Assembly (NCBI GenBank): GCA_965214095.1
Contig: OZ243938.1
Location: 1,664,001-1,728,000, forward strand
Origin: Candidatus Poribacteria bacterium
GTDB lineage: Bacteria > Poribacteria > WGA-4E > WGA-3G
Direction of reading: 5' to 3'
DNA length: 64,000 nt
Part shown: in pieces, positions 7,054 through 17,239 of the stretch
Layout of the letters: every line of letters begins with the position of its first letter
How positions within the stretch are numbered: the first letter of the stretch is position 1
Program-made: the position numbers and the translations under genes
Notes under the pieces: generated by a model
Seen by the model: the letters and a program-made list of their open reading frames with translations, nothing else
Databases searched by the model: none
Told to the model about the DNA's origin: nothing

Positions 7054-8971
7054 TTAGAACGGCAAACGGATTTGATTTGTATACTGTTTTATTCGTTCAT
7101 GTGCCAGTTTGATGTATTCTTCTGCAATATCGTATCCGACGTAGTGTCTATCGGATTTTGCGGCACTCAAACAGGTTGTCCCACTGCCACAAAATGGATC
7201 TAAAACGACATCGCTTTTGAAGGTGTATAACTGAATTAAACGGTGCGGAAGTTCTTCAGGAAACGGTGCGGGATGCCCTATACGTTTGGCAGATACAGAT
7301 GGAAATGTCCACACGCTTTTTGTCCACTCTAAGAAATCCTCTTTAGTAATGGAATTTTCCTTGTCGTTACGTTGTCGTGAAAAGGAGTCTTTTGAGAATA
7401 CGAGAATATATTCATGGACATCTCTGAGGACAGGATTTGCGGCAGATAGCCAACTCCCCCATGCCGTTGAACTACCCGCAGATGCAGCTTTGTCCCAGAT
7501 GATTTCTCCACGCATATAGTAACCTATTTCCAACATATCTTCTATGATGTGACTATGCAGCGGGATATACGGTTTACGTCCTAAATTCGCGATATTAATG
7601 CATGCCCTTCCACCTGTCACCAACTTCTTGTAGGTTTGAACTCATAGCGAGTAACATCTAAGCATCGTTGAAAGTTGCTCGAAAATTTATCATTGAATAT
7701 GCTAAATTACGAAAACCTAAACGTGTTTCTTTGAGTTTATCATAACTTAGAACGAGTCTTCGGTAAGTATCTTGCCACCCGAAAGTTCGCTCTACTTTAT
7801 ACCGGTCTTTGTATATATCTTTTCTAAACCACCGGAACTTGCGAGCGATAGCGATAGGTTCTTTAGTGTTTCGTTTGTTAGGGTAGATCACTGGGATCAG
7901 TCCTTGTTCTTTAATAATCTTATGATTCACCTTGGAATCAAAACCAGAATCCAGCGTTAGCGCGGAACCATCAAGTGCCATGCCAATCCGATTGCTGAAG
8001 GAGATGAGTTCGGTCAATGCCTCGGGCAAAATCGTTGTATCATGTTGGTTCACTGGTTTGAGGGTTATTGGACCAATGATAAAACCTTTATTGTCGGTGA
8101 TAGCCACCTCTTTTTCACCTTTTTGATGTTTATGACCTGAATACCCTATGGTGTCACCCCTTTTTTTACAACAGTGTTTGAACCATCACCATGTAAACAA
8201 GAGGTGTCAAGTTGATCACTATCATGAAGATGTATGACAGATGCTTCAAAAAGTTTCTCATAAGAACCATCTTTTGACCAACGATTATGCCATTTATAGA
8301 CGTTAGACCAATGGAGTTCATTACGCCGTGTGCGGAGTTGATCCCATTGAATACCGGTATGTAAAACATAGAGGATATAGTTGAATATCTTATAGAAAGA
8401 CAGTTTCGGTTTGGGACCTTTTATGCGTTTCTTTAGATGAGGTTTGATATAACGATTAAAATCCTTACGTGAAACCTGCTTCGGAATACCATTGTATCTG
8501 AGGGGCTCTTGAACCTTGTCTGCCATAACAACACCTTTCAATAAGTTATAGATATATGAAGTGAAAGAATAGGACATAAATAAACTCTTGTGTTTCCCTA
8601 TTATATAGCATTATTATGTTTTACTCAATATGAGTTCTTTCAGCAAATACGTTACGTAAGAGTTCTCTATACTCGTCTAATGACAGGTCATCGTCGTATT
8701 CCTTTTTGGCGTTATATGGAGGCGATGTCACCATAAGATGAATGCTGCCATCAGGAATCTCTGACATTTTCTCGCTTGAAGCACAATAGAGTTGGTCAAG
8801 GTTTTCAGGTGGTATAGGGTTTTCTATCCACGTTTCGGGTTCAGGTGGTGCTTGGTTTGCGTAGAGTTTTCCCTTGTAGAATTCAGTGGAGTCGTGGTTG
8901 ATCCTTCCGGTAGTTCCGAAAGTACTTGTTTTTGTGCCTTGTTCCTGTGATTCTATATTTGGTTTATGCAT
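7054..8971 (-). pseudogene. Beta-class N4-C/N6-A DNA methyltransferase interrupted by an IS5-family element
   Basis: N-part 8638-8971 has TSPPY. C-part 7054-7637 has HPAPFP and DPFCGSGTT. Removing the IS and one TTT restores ...VFAETYKKLVTGGR... Confidence 0.9.
7638..8637 (-). mobile_element. IS5-family insertion sequence, 1000 bp, two-ORF frameshifted transposase
   Basis: TIRs GAACTCATAGCGAGTAA and GAACTCATATTGAGTAA; 3-bp TTT duplication (7635-7637, 8638-8640). ORF A has TGIQW/VYKWHNRWSKDG; ORF B has DSGFD and RYKVERTFGW. Confidence 0.93.
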
Positions 8972-11680: not shown

Positions 11681-14029
11681 ATGAATAATCAGCTTTTGAA
11701 CAGGAAATTGTTATTTTCCTTGATGGCTGTAATAATGTGTTTGGGATTCACAGCACTGAGTTACGGTGCAGCCACCGTATCTGTTGATCCCGCTACTGTT
11801 GAGTCTCCCGCTGTCGGTGAACAACTCACTATAAATATTAATATTGCTGGTGGTGCTGGTGTGGGCGGTTTCCAAGCAACCGTCAATTATGACAATACTG
11901 CGCTTAGTTATGTTTCCGCTGCAAAAGGAGCTTATATTCCTGGAGATATACTTGCAGGAACATTTTTCCCAGTTATACGACCAGGTGATTCTCTTGTCGT
12001 CATTGGTGGAACGTCTGTTGGTGCAGGAACTGCAGATGGTGATGGAACGCTTGCTACGGTAACCTTTGAGGTGCTTGAGGTAAAAGCGTCATCTATCACT
12101 CTGTCAGACGTTATCGTTTCTGATGCTGCTGGAGCGAACTTAGAAGCCACAACTGCAGACGGCGCGGTTACTGTACCTACTCCAGAAGAGGAAACCACTG
12201 AAGAAACTACAGAGGAAACCACTGAAGAGACTACAGAAGAAACCACTGAAGAAACTACAGAAGAAACCACTGAAGAAACTACAGAGGAAACCACTGAAGA
12301 AACTACTACAGAGGAAACCACTGAAGAGACTACAGAGGAAACCACTGAAGAGACTACAGAGGAAACCACTGAAGAAACTACAGAGGAAACCACTGAAGAA
12401 ACTACAGAGGAAACCGTTGTAGCAGAACCTGTTATCCCCGATCCACAAGTGTTCGCTATTACCCTCACCAACCTAACAGAAGGTGAACCGGGAATGGGTG
12501 GACAGATCTTCTCACCTCCAATCTTTGCAGCACATCCTGCTGCTAAACTCTTTGAAGTTGGTATGCCCGCGTCCCCAGCACTTGTCCTGCTCGCTGAAGG
12601 TGGAGACACCTCAGGCCTTGCCGCACTCGCAGCAGCTGTTGGAGCAACTCCTGTCATGGGAGAAGGTATGGTTCTACCCGGTGCATCCGTTACCGTTATG
12701 GTTTCAGCAGATGCGATGAACTCTGCACTTTCACTCGCAACAATGTTGGTCTCAACAAATGATGCATTTATTGGAACTACTGACTTAGCCTTGTATGATG
12801 AAATGGGAATGCCTATTAACACAACATTATATCTAAGGTCTTACGATGCTGGTAGTGAACAGAATACGGAACGTGGTACAGATATTCCTGGTCCAGTTGG
12901 TCTGCCTGCAGATGAAGACCCGATGGGGTCTAATGCACGTGTTCCCACTGAAGGTGGCGTAATCACACCGCACCCTGGAATCCAAGGTGTAGGTGATGTC
13001 TTACCATCATTTGCATGGGAAGAACCCACAGCGATGGTTACAATTGCACCTTATGTGCCAGAACCACCACCAGAACCACCACCCGTATTGCCTACTTATG
13101 ATGTCAAACTCGCAGCGGGACTAAACATGATCTCTGTTCCGTTGATGCCGACAGAACCCTACACAGCAAAATCTCTTGCAGAAATGTTAGGTTCAACGGT
13201 TGTCATCAGGTTAGATGCCTATTCACAGACTTTTGATGGTTATGTCGTTGTTGATGATGATGATGGCTTCGCAATAGAAGGTGGCAAAGGTTATATCGTC
13301 AATACACCGGCAGGTGGAACGGTAACATTTAGTGGTAATGCATGGTCTAATGAACCGGCAGATATGCCGATGCATGAAGGCACAATGGATGAAGCCGCTG
13401 CTGCACCTAAGATTACTACTTCAAGTGCTTGGGCATTTATCGTTACAAGTAACTTGCAGGAGAAAGTAAGTGGTGCTACCTACACAATGGTTGGCAAAAA
13501 CCTCCGCACTGGTGTAGTTTCAACCAAAACAGTTACCAGTGAAGATGGATATGTTTCGGCTGTTTGGGCAGATCTGAGCGAGAAGAGCGTCGTGCAAGCT
13601 GGAGATAAAATTGAGATCTCTGTTCTTGACGAAGATGGCACTGTTGTGTCCGGTCCGTTTGAACGCACAGTCCAAAGCACAGATATTCACAACGCATATA
13701 TGGATGTGGAAATGCGTGTTGGCGATGTACGTCCAAAAGATAGTATTCTTGGACAGAACTTCCCCAATCCGTTCAATCCTGAAACTTGGATTCCATATCA
13801 GTTGAGCAGTGATTCCAATGTTATGATTACGATCTATGATGTTTCTGGTCATACAGTTCGTGAATTAAACTTGGGTCATAAGTCAACGGGTTCGTATATG
13901 ACGAATTCATCAGCGGCCTATTGGGATGGTAAGAATGAAACGGGTGAACATGTTTCGAGCGGTATCTATTTCTATTCGCTCCAAACAGCGACTTTCTCCG
14001 CGACCCGTCGCATGGTCATACTCAAGTAG
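11681..14029 (+). CDS. Secreted protein: cohesin + (EETT)n linker + Spondin_N + C-terminal FlgD-Ig/T9SS-type sorting domain
   Basis: Signal peptide. Cohesin pattern VGEQLTININI...FQATVNYDNTALSYVS...GDGTLATVTFEV. Spondin_N motifs FSPPIFAAH, SPALVLLAEGG, MLVSTNDAF, YDAGSE.N. C-terminus LGQNFPNPFNPETWIPYQL...WDGKN..GE.VSSGIYFY. Confidence 0.8.
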   Translation: MNNQLLNRKLLFSLMAVIMCLGFTALSYGAATVSVDPATVESPAVGEQLTININIAGGAGVGGFQATVNYDNTALSYVSAAKGAYIPGDILAGTFFPVIRPGDSLVVIGGTSVGAGTADGDGTLATVTFEVLEVKASSITLSDVIVSDAAGANLEATTADGAVTVPTPEEETTEETTEETTEETTEETTEETTEETTEETTEETTEETTTEETTEETTEETTEETTEETTEETTEETTEETTEETVVAEPVIPDPQVFAITLTNLTEGEPGMGGQIFSPPIFAAHPAAKLFEVGMPASPALVLLAEGGDTSGLAALAAAVGATPVMGEGMVLPGASVTVMVSADAMNSALSLATMLVSTNDAFIGTTDLALYDEMGMPINTTLYLRSYDAGSEQNTERGTDIPGPVGLPADEDPMGSNARVPTEGGVITPHPGIQGVGDVLPSFAWEEPTAMVTIAPYVPEPPPEPPPVLPTYDVKLAAGLNMISVPLMPTEPYTAKSLAEMLGSTVVIRLDAYSQTFDGYVVVDDDDGFAIEGGKGYIVNTPAGGTVTFSGNAWSNEPADMPMHEGTMDEAAAAPKITTSSAWAFIVTSNLQEKVSGATYTMVGKNLRTGVVSTKTVTSEDGYVSAVWADLSEKSVVQAGDKIEISVLDEDGTVVSGPFERTVQSTDIHNAYMDVEMRVGDVRPKDSILGQNFPNPFNPETWIPYQLSSDSNVMITIYDVSGHTVRELNLGHKSTGSYMTNSSAAYWDGKNETGEHVSSGIYFYSLQTATFSATRRMVILK
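12188..12415 (+). repeat. Coding tandem repeat: about 18 EETT units (12-nt unit, 24-nt higher-order period)
   Basis: Alternating GAGGAAACCACT / GAAGARACTACA units, with one EETTT variant. Confidence 0.95.
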
Positions 14030-14053
14030 ATTTCATAACTAAAACTGAATAAC

Positions 14054-14126
14054 AAAAAACGCCCCGACTGCCGGTTTTCCGACCGCGAATCAATTTGATT
14101 AGCGTCGGCGGCGGGGGCGTTTTTTC
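14054..14126 (+). terminator. Long GC-rich stem-loop between the cohesin and dockerin genes
   Basis: AAAAAACGCCCC...GGGGCGTTTTTT outer stem enclosing an inner CCGAC...GTCGG hairpin. Confidence 0.65.
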
Positions 14127-14134
14127 ATGTTATT

Positions 14135-17100
14135 ATGAGGGAGGTACTTTTGAATAAACGAAACAAGACATTTTTTCTTTGTAGCATGCTTGTACTCTTG
14201 TGTGTAGCAAGCAGTAGTAGTGTATTTGCCTTTTCTTCTAATCCACCAGATGAACTGACTGGTGCTCCAAATGAAGGGAACTGTACGCAATGTCATACAG
14301 GTAATGACTTGAATGTTGTGGGTGGGTCATTGATGTTAACAGTGCCTGGTGTCTATACTCCCGGCATGGAATACGATATTGTTGTTGAATTAGCACGTGC
14401 AGGACAGAGTCGGTGGGGATTTCAGATTACCGCGCAGGATAGCAAAAATGTGCGCGCAGGTACCTTCGCCACTTCGGATACAAATACTCGATTAGAAAAA
14501 GCGAACAGTAAACAATATATTGAACATACATCCGTAGGAACTGCTGCAGGTACAAGAAACTCAAACAGTTGGACATTTAAATGGACTGCTCCATCCAATG
14601 ATGTTGGACCGATTACGTTTTATGCAGCTGGGAATGCAGCGAATAATGCTAATGGTGCTTTGGGTGATTATATCTATACACAGAGAGCAACATCAGATTC
14701 CATTGCTTATGGCGTTTCATTAGCTGGCGTTGGTTCATTGAATAAAACTGTAAATACGGGGATAGAGACAAGATATACTCTCACAGTAAAGAACACTGGT
14801 AATTCAAGAGATACAATAAGTTTGTCTACTTCTGGAATTGCTTCAGCAAGTTTAAACCAGTCATCTGTTACACTTGACGCGGAAACTTCTGCCAACGTGA
14901 CTTTGACAATTCCCGGTTCAGCCTTAACGAGTGCAGGAGAATATAAGGCTACGGTCACTGCCTCGTCACAAGGGGATAGTTCAAAATCTGCTGAAGTTAT
15001 AACTACTACAACTATTCTTCCTGCATACAGTGTTAGTTTAGCAGGCGAAGGTAGCTTAACAAGGCAGACAACAGATGCAAGTAATGGTGTGCGTTATACG
15101 GTCAAAGTCACCAACGATGGCAATACAACTGACACGATACGTTTATCTACTTCAGGTGATGCTTCAGCAACAATAAGTCCGAGTCCTGTCACACTTAGTG
15201 CAGGTGCTTCAAGAAACCTATCATTGACAGTTTCTGACAGTAAACTCGTACAAGCGGGTGAATACAAAGTAAAAGTTACAGCTACATCGCAAAATGACAG
15301 TTCAAAAACTGCTGAAATTACTACCACTACAACTATTTTGCCTGTCTACGATATTGCGATTGAAGGTGTCGATGAACTGACGACTGAAACTGCAGATGCA
15401 AGTGACGGTGTAAGTTATGCACTCAAAATAACTAACAACGGAAATACGGATGATGTAATTGATTTAGCAACATCCGGCACTGCAGCCACGTTAAGTCAAG
15501 AGTCTGTTTCGCTTACATCAGGTGCTTCAGCAGAAGTAATGTTGACGATTTCAGGTGATGTGCTTGCTTTAGCAGATACATATCAAGTCAAGGTTACTGC
15601 TACTTCGCAAGGGGATGATACCCAAACCGTTGAAATCACAACGACTACGACTATCCTGCCTGTCTACGACATATCATTAGAAGGTGTCGGTGAACTGACA
15701 ACTGAAACTGCAGATGCAAGTGATGGTGTAAGTTATACGTTGAAAGTTACAAACAACGGAAATACGGAGGATACGATTGATTTGACAATATCCGGCACTG
15801 CAGCAATGTTAAGTCAAGAGTCTGTTTCGCTTGCATCGGGTGCTTCAGCAGATGTGATGTTGACGATTTCTGGTGATGTGCTTGCTTTGGCAGATAGTTA
15901 TGAAGTCAAGGTCACTGCTACTTCACAAGGTGATGCTACAAATACTGCTGAAATCACAACGACGACGACTATTTTGCCTGTCTTTGACATATCATTAGAA
16001 GGTGTCGGTGACTTGACAACTGAAACTACAGACGCAAGTGACGGTGTGAGTTATACGCTGAAAGTCACAAACAATGGAAATACGAATGATACGATTGACT
16101 TAGCAACATCAGGCACTGCAGCAACATTGAGTCAAGCGTCTGTTTCGCTTGCGTCAGGTGCTTCCACAGAAGTAATGTTGACGATTTCGGGTGATGTGCT
16201 TGCCTTAGCAGATACATATCAAGTCAAGGTTACTGCTACTTCGCAAGGTGATGATACCCAAACCGTTGAAATCATAACGACAACGACTGTTCTCCCCGTA
16301 TACGGCGTGACTTTAACAAGTGATACACTCACTGGTGCAACAACGGAAGCGAATATAGGTGTAACTTATACACTCACAGTAACAAATACCGGTAATACTA
16401 ATGATACGATAGTTCTCGGTTCCTCCGCTGAAGTAGGAATCACCGGTGCTGTTCTGGGTTCGTTCAACCTGCCTAACTCTGAAGAACCTGACATGGCTCA
16501 ACTGGAAATAATGCTTGCTGCAGGGGAATCCGCAGAGGTAGCGTTTATTGCTTCTGGTGATTTGTTGACACAGCCCGGTGAATATGAAATTGTGGTTACA
16601 GCGACTTCACAAGGAGATACTACGAAGTCTGCTCAACTTACCACAACAACCACGATAACTGCTGTTCCACCGGAATACGGTGTCATGTTGCAGGGTAAAG
16701 ACGAACTCACAGGTGAGACAATGGACATCTTAACAGGTGTCACTTATACACTTATCGTTACAAATACGGGTAACACCGATGACACAATTGTTCTCAGTTC
16801 TTCAGTAGAGGTCGGAATTGAAGGTAACGTTCTCGGTTCGTTCAGCCAATCTGACGATCAAGAAATGTCCACAGCTCAGTTGCAACTTACACTTGCTGCT
16901 GGCGAAACTGTAGAAGTAGAATTCACTGCTTCTGGTGATTTCTTCACGAAGCCGGGTGAATATGAGATAATGGTTACCGCAACTTCACAAGGCGATACTA
17001 CGAAAATTGCTGAAGTTACGACCACAACTACGATTGAACCTGTGCCGTGGGATCTGAATGCTGATGGCACGGTGAATATCTTGGATCTGGTCGCGGTTGC

Positions 17101-17239
17101 TAACCAATTCGGTGAAACAGGTGAAGGACTTTCTGGTGATGTGAATATGGATGGCACGGTGAATATCTTGGATTTAGTTGCGGTTGCTAACCAATTCGGA
17201 AAATCACAAGCAGAGATTGTCCAAGCAGCTAACCAATAG
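14135..17239 (+). CDS. Secreted protein: CxxCH-containing Reeler-like (choice-of-anchor V) domain + 7 Ig-like repeats + type I dockerin
   Basis: Signal peptide; TGAPNEGNCTQCH, GFQITA, FKWTAP...GPITFYAAGN. Seven ~106-aa repeats with VTNxGNxxD. Duplicated DxNxDGTVNILDLVAVANQFG. Start may be TTG 14150. Confidence 0.8.
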   Translation: MREVLLNKRNKTFFLCSMLVLLCVASSSSVFAFSSNPPDELTGAPNEGNCTQCHTGNDLNVVGGSLMLTVPGVYTPGMEYDIVVELARAGQSRWGFQITAQDSKNVRAGTFATSDTNTRLEKANSKQYIEHTSVGTAAGTRNSNSWTFKWTAPSNDVGPITFYAAGNAANNANGALGDYIYTQRATSDSIAYGVSLAGVGSLNKTVNTGIETRYTLTVKNTGNSRDTISLSTSGIASASLNQSSVTLDAETSANVTLTIPGSALTSAGEYKATVTASSQGDSSKSAEVITTTTILPAYSVSLAGEGSLTRQTTDASNGVRYTVKVTNDGNTTDTIRLSTSGDASATISPSPVTLSAGASRNLSLTVSDSKLVQAGEYKVKVTATSQNDSSKTAEITTTTTILPVYDIAIEGVDELTTETADASDGVSYALKITNNGNTDDVIDLATSGTAATLSQESVSLTSGASAEVMLTISGDVLALADTYQVKVTATSQGDDTQTVEITTTTTILPVYDISLEGVGELTTETADASDGVSYTLKVTNNGNTEDTIDLTISGTAAMLSQESVSLASGASADVMLTISGDVLALADSYEVKVTATSQGDATNTAEITTTTTILPVFDISLEGVGDLTTETTDASDGVSYTLKVTNNGNTNDTIDLATSGTAATLSQASVSLASGASTEVMLTISGDVLALADTYQVKVTATSQGDDTQTVEIITTTTVLPVYGVTLTSDTLTGATTEANIGVTYTLTVTNTGNTNDTIVLGSSAEVGITGAVLGSFNLPNSEEPDMAQLEIMLAAGESAEVAFIASGDLLTQPGEYEIVVTATSQGDTTKSAQLTTTTTITAVPPEYGVMLQGKDELTGETMDILTGVTYTLIVTNTGNTDDTIVLSSSVEVGIEGNVLGSFSQSDDQEMSTAQLQLTLAAGETVEVEFTASGDFFTKPGEYEIMVTATSQGDTTKIAEVTTTTTIEPVPWDLNADGTVNILDLVAVANQFGETGEGLSGDVNMDGTVNILDLVAVANQFGKSQAEIVQAANQ
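15341..16294 (+). repeat. Three near-identical 318-bp intragenic repeats (Ig-like units 3-5)
   Basis: CCTGTCT.. unit starts at 15341, 15659 and 15977, with highly similar DNA. Confidence 0.85.

Follow-up and report, generated by a model that had tools for sequence, protein, structure and literature searches.

The question raised by this locus is what two adjacent genes for secreted proteins, one carrying a cohesin and the other a dockerin, accomplish at the surface of a Candidatus Poribacteria bacterium. The genes, designated A and B, lie on the forward strand of a 64,000 nucleotide (nt) stretch of contig OZ243938.1 (assembly GCA_965214095.1, positions 1,664,001 to 1,728,000), referred to throughout as the window, and are separated by 105 nt (see Table 1 for coordinates). 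An initial annotation of the sequence proposed that docking of the two proteins joins a Reeler and a Spondin domain as a split mimic of the animal matrix protein F-spondin, possibly for host-matrix adhesion or immune modulation. The reading preferred here, to which we give a little better than an even chance, is that A is an anchor of the T9SS (type IX secretion system) type and that B is a docked stalk protein bearing a probable haem c head.

Two secreted proteins and a predicted haem head

Read from its N-terminus, A has a signal peptide, a cohesin and an acidic linker; behind these come a spondin domain, a pair of small beta domains and, at the end, a sorting tail of T9SS type A (34.2 bits for TIGR04183, cut-off 23). 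B consists of a choice-of-anchor V (Reeler-like) head and seven immunoglobulin-like (Ig) repeats and ends in a dockerin; it is tailless. The likelier start of B is the TTG at 14150, with GGAGG at 14140-14144. The initial annotation did not include this start, the hairpin between the genes, the two beta domains of A or the CTQCH motif in the head of B described below. The initial annotation of two neighbouring, same-strand secreted proteins with this content was borne out by both family and own-profile matches (PF00963, NF038123, TIGR04183 and 18.7 EETT copies in A; NF041895, PF02014, PF00404 and our own profiles in B), as was its statement that neither protein holds a glycoside hydrolase; no glycoside hydrolase or carbohydrate-binding module (CBM) family was matched in A or B in Pfam and NCBIfam searches.

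The head of B matches NF041895 over amino acids (aa) 23-184 (5e-31; 107.7 bits, cut-off 42) and the Reeler family PF02014 over aa 72-164 (26.4 bits, cut-off 21). Past the predicted signal peptide the mature protein begins FSSNPP, and a CTQCH motif of the haem c type follows within its first 25 residues. The two cysteines and the histidine of this motif were present in all 98 aligned head rows, and a CxnCH motif was present in 148 of the 150 best representatives of 6086 head clusters, the spacing being Cx2 in 126, Cx3 in 6, Cx4 in 12 and Cx5 in 4; of the two exceptions, one begins past the motif and one has Trp at the first Cys. When a structure model of the head (pLDDT 96) was used in a wide structural search, cytochrome f was the top match (Z 11.5, rmsd 3.1, 141 of 158 residues, from residue 2), followed by a reeler and a cohesin (both Z 10.1). 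Cytochrome f binds haem through a CxxCH motif near residues 21-25, some 20 residues after an aromatic first residue, together with its N-terminal amino group. Among the best 150, 57 longer head relatives were scanned, of which four carry a PQQ dehydrogenase-like fusion and one a SoxA-like cytochrome fusion, all scoring below the family cut-offs. Because of the near-invariant CxnCH, the cytochrome f fold match and the PQQ dehydrogenase fusions, the head is probably a haem c domain, as predicted from sequence and model; the genome also encodes a CcmF-like gene, a CcmE gene and three PF01578 genes. Anchors vary among the same 150 head relatives, with tails in 32 and dockerins in 14. Two proteins of about 540 aa (L208:124-1767 and L219:85-1695) are candidates for further docked haem proteins: each has its dockerin at the N-terminus and a motif of the CxxCH type around residue 110-120, and lacks both a tail and any Pfam match at E<=1e-11.

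The remaining assignments were checked against solved structures. Profiles of relatives were required for this, as single-sequence PDB searches with the head and the spondin domain gave chance matches only. The cohesin profile matched cellulosomal, type II and Clostridium perfringens cohesins (best 1.5e-12), the dockerin profile matched solved dockerins (best 4e-11), and the two profiles matched the chains of one solved complex, 2Y3N. The spondin profile matched the FS domains of mindin (9.9e-9) and F-spondin (0.0046), and the head profile matched the F-spondin reeler (5.5e-5). The homology of A and B to both N-terminal domains of F-spondin, as claimed in the initial annotation, is therefore real. 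Pfam Spond_N scored 22.3 bits on A, slightly below its cut-off of 24; residues D107, D135 and E139 of the domain are invariant among aligned relatives, and a cysteine was found in none of 52. Both the unit and the length of the linker vary among relatives, giving a cohesin-spondin gap of about 11-498 aa. In B, the dockerin scored 33.4 bits for Dockerin_1 (cut-off 22.9), with D/N loop residues that are invariant across 25 rows.

Domain retention, gene order and the intergenic hairpin

Of 151 genomes searched, 115 held a spondin match and 100 a choice-of-anchor V match. The latter was found in 97 of 99 genomes of the window's family, in none of 36 from two sister families and in two of four from a fourth family, while spondin occurred without any Reeler-like gene in 21 of the 36 sister-family genomes. 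Of 101 choice-of-anchor V matches listed, 80 lie 1.1-4.6 kb downstream of, and on one strand with, a spondin match that was also listed; 14 further spondin matches fell outside the listing. The other 21 comprise one which is adjacent after all (G107), three behind a spondin-less A (G024, G089 and G113), two from the fourth family and 15 that have a contig end no more than 1.8 kb upstream. The 61 distinct family loci included 57 with a complete B and 54 with an intact upstream A. The cohesin was present in all 54 intact A proteins and the spondin domain in 49, being missing from five; a terminal dockerin was present in 56 of the 57 complete B proteins (the remaining one is split and its dockerin falls in the following open reading frame, ORF), and a T9SS tail in none. 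From these retention counts, the constant partners are the cohesin and tail of A and the dockerin of a tailless B. In a genome of another family (G080), head, dockerin and tail occur in a single 644-aa protein near ispH, with no A gene within the 12 kb fetched; ispH also lies 2.4 kb from B in the window genome. The titles of the nearest relatives name Ca. Poribacteria in 55 of 80 loci, and a sponge metatranscriptome contains transcripts of a relative, both of which support the sponge-associated lineage suggested by the initial annotation.

A hairpin lies between the two genes, and its pattern was found in 53 of 55 related loci (one divergent), with a single copy in the window genome; it was missed by the terminator scan because of its long loop. 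As the hairpin ends about 15 nt ahead of the ribosome-binding site of B, read-through or processing is the probable route by which B is made, and the hairpin is likely to be a partial terminator or a processing signal. A riboswitch was considered and rejected, there being no Rfam match up to E 1 and only slight covariation (1 of 23 pairs). The RNA data consisted of contigs only, from 4 RNA runs of 24 listed, two of them apparently one data set. RNA contigs of related strains span A and end at 14047, 14065 and 14093, that is at or in the hairpin, and others hold pieces of B, with none spanning the A-B junction; these ends are a weak hint from which expression cannot be ranked. In the accessible text of PMC4423207, stem-loops are described as setting subunit ratios in the cip-cel operon, and by analogy the hairpin probably lets A transcripts outnumber those of B. 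At two loci (L074 and L078) a duplicate A without cohesin or spondin sits between A and B, and in L078 the hairpin is duplicated too.

Proposed docking and export, and competing explanations

In the preferred reading, the signal peptide would take A to the periplasm and the T9SS-type tail would take it to the surface, where the cohesin would be presented at the tip of the long acidic linker. The Ccm system would load haem c onto the CTQCH motif of B in the periplasm, and the Ca2+-binding dockerin of B would clip to the cohesin either on the surface or before export, in which case B would travel out with A. The Ig stalk, whose length depends on the lineage and ranges from 1 to 24 repeats in the B proteins of relatives (three of the seven here are recent 318-nt duplicates), would keep the haem head off the cell, and the head might serve as a tethered one-electron carrier or a ligand sensor; one haem on an Ig stalk could not by itself form a wire reaching the membrane. 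Spondin would be an optional accessory of A. With regard to export, an SprA-like ORF of 2196 aa (G000:C1:2569438-2576025, equivalent to L186:8438-15025; 1.6e-42, below cut-off) and 15 PorV-family matches genome-wide, seven of them above cut-off, suggest a T9SS-like exporter, SprA and PorV being the components looked for; the accessible text of PMC3909097 reports no T9SS structural genes from earlier Poribacteria single-cell genomes.

The genome holds 51 dockerin and 23 cohesin matches to Pfam, together with one spondin and one choice-of-anchor V match above cut-off. Our own profiles find a dockerin in 49 ORFs, of which 17 also carry a cohesin and 32 do not; they find 80 tailed ORFs, and among these A is the only one with a cohesin but no dockerin. 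No ORF has more than two cohesins, and 6 of 22 cohesins lack a dockerin directly behind. Dockerins were found in 41 of 41 phylum genomes (3-76 matches each), and other carriers in this genome include sulfatases, leucine-rich repeat (LRR), WD40, cadherin, VWA and solute-binding proteins, with no glycoside hydrolase or CBM at E<=1e-11 in the 21 other dockerin ORFs scanned. Across 48 loci, whose kin are not independent, the cohesin-dockerin pair had the highest partial distance correlation (0.32) of 12 A-B domain pairs. The suggestion in the initial annotation that a non-cellulolytic cohesin-dockerin pair is the likely link between the two proteins is supported.

A number of observations weigh against the preferred reading. 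In the correlation analysis, control domains came near the value for cohesin and dockerin (tail-dockerin 0.26, another A domain 0.22). The dockerin motif of B is common to most of the genome's 49 dockerin ORFs and, with 32 cohesin-free dockerin ORFs set against six free cohesins, exclusivity of A for B is doubtful. Of the 9 loci fetched from the two sister families, 7 have a gene of the A type, with cohesin, spondin and tail, and no B. The initial annotation proposed checking whether A and B stay adjacent in relatives; they do so across one Poribacteria family, but neighbours unrelated to them are retained equally (an upstream gene in 34 of 44 loci; a downstream oxidoreductase in 74 and a MacB-type permease in 70 of 82 loci, not de-duplicated), so that gene order is weak evidence for pairing; the whole gene block is stable as a unit, and the adjacency probably arose once, in one ancestral event. 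As regards the head, the lead of cytochrome f over the reeler and the cohesin in the wide search (VIA) is only 1.4 Z, Foldseek places the F-spondin reeler first with cytochrome f absent among the rows shown, and no redox partner was found among the 21 dockerin proteins scanned, WD40-rich ones excluded.

These points bear on several rival explanations. One, which we consider rather unlikely, is that the genome's cohesins and dockerins bind promiscuously to form a surface mesh, with A and B being just two members within a stable gene block, or, in a variant, that the dockerin acts alone as a Ca2+-binding or sorting tag. The size of the pool, the 17 ORFs with both modules, the common dockerin motif, the presence of dockerins throughout the phylum and the equal synteny of neighbours all agree with such sharing, as does the occurrence elsewhere in the genome of a tailed gene without detected cohesin ahead of a terminal-dockerin gene. 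Yet in the window genome the usual upstream neighbour is 0.65 Mb away while A and B have stayed together, the cohesin was retained in every intact A although the spondin domain was lost from five, and the conserved hairpin sequence leaves scant room behind it for a promoter of B's own. A second possibility, less probable again, retains the docking of B to A and makes the head haem-free, with the cysteines forming a disulfide or, with the histidine, a metal site, and the head serving as a tip for adhesion or metal binding. In its favour, adhesins typically have long Ig stalks, the motif spacing varies from Cx2 to Cx5, Gln replaces the second histidine in 16 of 98 rows, and the fold is common to pilins, cohesins and YcnI (Z 8-10). 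Against this stand the invariant C, C and H just past the mature N-terminus, as in cytochrome f, the fold match from residue 2, the PQQ dehydrogenase-like and SoxA-like fusions, and the presence of Ccm genes.

The union of Reeler and Spondin through docking, as proposed by the initial annotation, is the least probable of the explanations weighed, and we regard it as very unlikely. Both domains are homologous to those of F-spondin, each is single-copy in the genome and yet the two are neighbours, spondin is found on one of the 80 tailed ORFs and was retained in most intact A proteins (49 of 54), and a flexible linker with the one or two Ig repeats of many relatives would make contact geometrically possible. 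However, five loci have a spondin-less A beside an intact B, 21 of 36 genomes in the two sister families have spondin but no Reeler-like gene, and docking would set head and spondin at opposite ends of a spacer made up of a variable linker and 1-24 Ig repeats. A head-spondin fusion was detected neither among 150 head relatives (our own profile for all, NCBIfam for 57 as well) nor among 120 relatives of the spondin domain. Bacteria carry both domains widely, as the 6086 head clusters illustrate; heads from outside the Poribacteria have a spondin or cohesin neighbour in 0 of 25 loci, with no spondin match in 20 of 25 such genomes, and the adjacency, having probably arisen once, counts as a single event. 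The purpose given to the pair is thus unsupported, and there is no positive evidence for mimicry. A broader variant, which is improbable though somewhat less so, is a phylum-wide docking surface system working through a T9SS-like exporter, in which a tailless haem protein resembling cytochrome f is exported and displayed on a tailed partner, with a stalk tuned between 1 and 24 repeats, and its head cooperates with the partner's spondin as a functional bacterial counterpart of the F-spondin N-terminus; if true, it would connect the Reeler domain of animals with a bacterial relative that binds haem.

If the preferred reading of A as anchor and B as docked haem protein is correct, an abundant sponge-associated phylum uses cohesin-dockerin clips to display a haem protein, and docking possibly exports a protein without a T9SS signal of its own. 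The locus offers small expressible units from an uncultured lineage (a 135-aa cohesin, a 60-aa dockerin and a 158-aa head) along with a first entry point into a head family of more than 6000 clusters that connects, by its fold, Reeler with cytochrome f. It advises caution as well, in that the 'eukaryote-like' domains of symbionts may be common bacterial modules and not host mimics.

Further features were noted in A and elsewhere in the genome. The second beta domain of A has the generic sandwich fold of Ig or transthyretin-like domains, and an ESM Atlas search with the beta domains gave only unnamed clusters (0.82-0.83). The idea that these domains are hidden cohesins was discarded, as no cohesin was among the fold matches listed (best Z 8.2), the first domain being barely tested. 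A paralogue of the C-terminal part of A is followed by a terminal-dockerin gene of 270-280 aa at L184:457-3489, L084 and L098; the paralogue in the window genome has no cohesin and no spondin by our own profiles. The 17 ORFs in which a cohesin is directly followed by a dockerin, often ahead of a tail, could chain head-to-tail as a surface mesh. Two sulfatases (L205:196-2262 and L205:2290-4296) have a twin-arginine-like leader, a dockerin and a T9SS tail. WD40 proteins ending in a free cohesin (L186:873-8293 and L187:757-13341) directly precede WD40 proteins that combine two cohesins with a dockerin at the terminus, and one such set adjoins the SprA-like gene. In the window, at 7054-8971 on the minus strand, an N6/N4 DNA methylase gene is apparently split by an IS5-type transposase (two ORFs, 7658-8577).

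Table 1. Coordinates of the features of the A-B locus, numbered from the first position of the window
Feature	Position	Strand	Basis
Gene A, secreted scaffold/anchor, 782 aa	11681..14029	+	ORF list, Pfam/NCBIfam, own profiles
Cohesin, N-terminal tip of A	11774..12178	+	PF00963 aa 35-165, 1.3e-13, 51.8 bits (cut-off 24.1)
(EETT)n acidic linker	12187..12415	+	Repeat finding, 18.7 copies of 12 nt
Bacterial spondin domain, cysteine-free	12443..13054	+	NF038123 aa 257-455, 2.7e-37
Two conserved beta domains without Pfam name, aa 471-559 and 582-682	13091..13726	+	Fold searches
T9SS type A sorting tail (FlgD_ig / Por_Secre_tail), aa 694-780	13733..14026	+	TIGR04183, 1.9e-8
Single-copy stem-loop, 72 nt, A run before and T run after	14054..14125	+	Folding z -3.88
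Gene B, secreted stalk protein, 1034 aa, no T9SS tail	14135..17239	+	ORF list, own profiles
Choice-of-anchor V / Reeler-like head, from predicted mature N-terminus	14231..14704	+	NF041895, structure model
CTQCH haem c-type motif, mature residues 18-22	14282..14296	+	Alignment of relatives
Seven Ig-like repeats	14714..17035	+	Own profiles, repeat finding
Terminal dockerin, two near-identical halves, common Poribacteria type	17051..17197	+	PF00404 aa 973-1020, 5.3e-8

Relation to known systems

The literature searches made turned up no published account of the A-B pair, although its domains may already be listed in papers behind subscription or in supplementary material such as Table S9 of PMC3909097; the accessible part of PMC8546597 held nothing relevant to the pair. 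Cohesin-dockerin systems outside the cellulosome are already known, from PDB 2OZN and from the accessible text of PMC8542988. The type II pairs of cellulosomes (Bacteroides cellulosolvens 2Y3N and Acetivibrio cellulolyticus ScaB) likewise combine a single-cohesin surface protein with a partner of Ig-like domain and terminal dockerin, and the cip-cel operon, as described in the accessible text of PMC4423207, has a stem-loop between co-oriented genes as A and B do. However, cellulosomes are anchored by SLH domains or sortase where A has a T9SS-type tail, and neither the dockerin-borne hydrolases nor the multi-cohesin scaffoldin with CBM of a cellulosome is seen here, the cargo being a probable haem domain. 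The NagJ cohesin and hyaluronidase dockerin of C. perfringens (PDB 2OZN and 2JNK) also operate outside cellulose breakdown. The complex of Ca. Stygibacter, in the portion of PMC8542988 that is accessible, is also inferred from genomes only and has a scaffold with a C-terminal surface-sorting domain like that of A; it differs in having a multi-cohesin scaffoldin, and these non-cellulosomal systems carry hydrolases or peptidases, where the A-B pair has one cohesin, a non-hydrolytic partner and a variable stalk.

The head of B is a member of the choice-of-anchor V family, and here the anchor sits on a second protein and the stalk reaches up to 24 repeats. The head resembles cytochrome f in its fold and in having CxxCH some 20 residues behind an aromatic first residue; it has 12% identity, lacks the small domain and the membrane anchor, does not belong to a b6f complex, and has a haem that is only predicted. 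With F-spondin and mindin, A and B share Reeler and FS homology, and A keeps acidic residues, which have a Ca2+ role, where mindin has its D..DAGTD motif. In F-spondin a single chain carries Reeler, next Spondin_N and after it thrombospondin type 1 repeats, for which there was no Pfam match in A or B, whereas the bacterial domains lie far apart on two chains in the reverse order; the spondin domain is here cysteine-free and optional, and the head bears the CxnCH motif.

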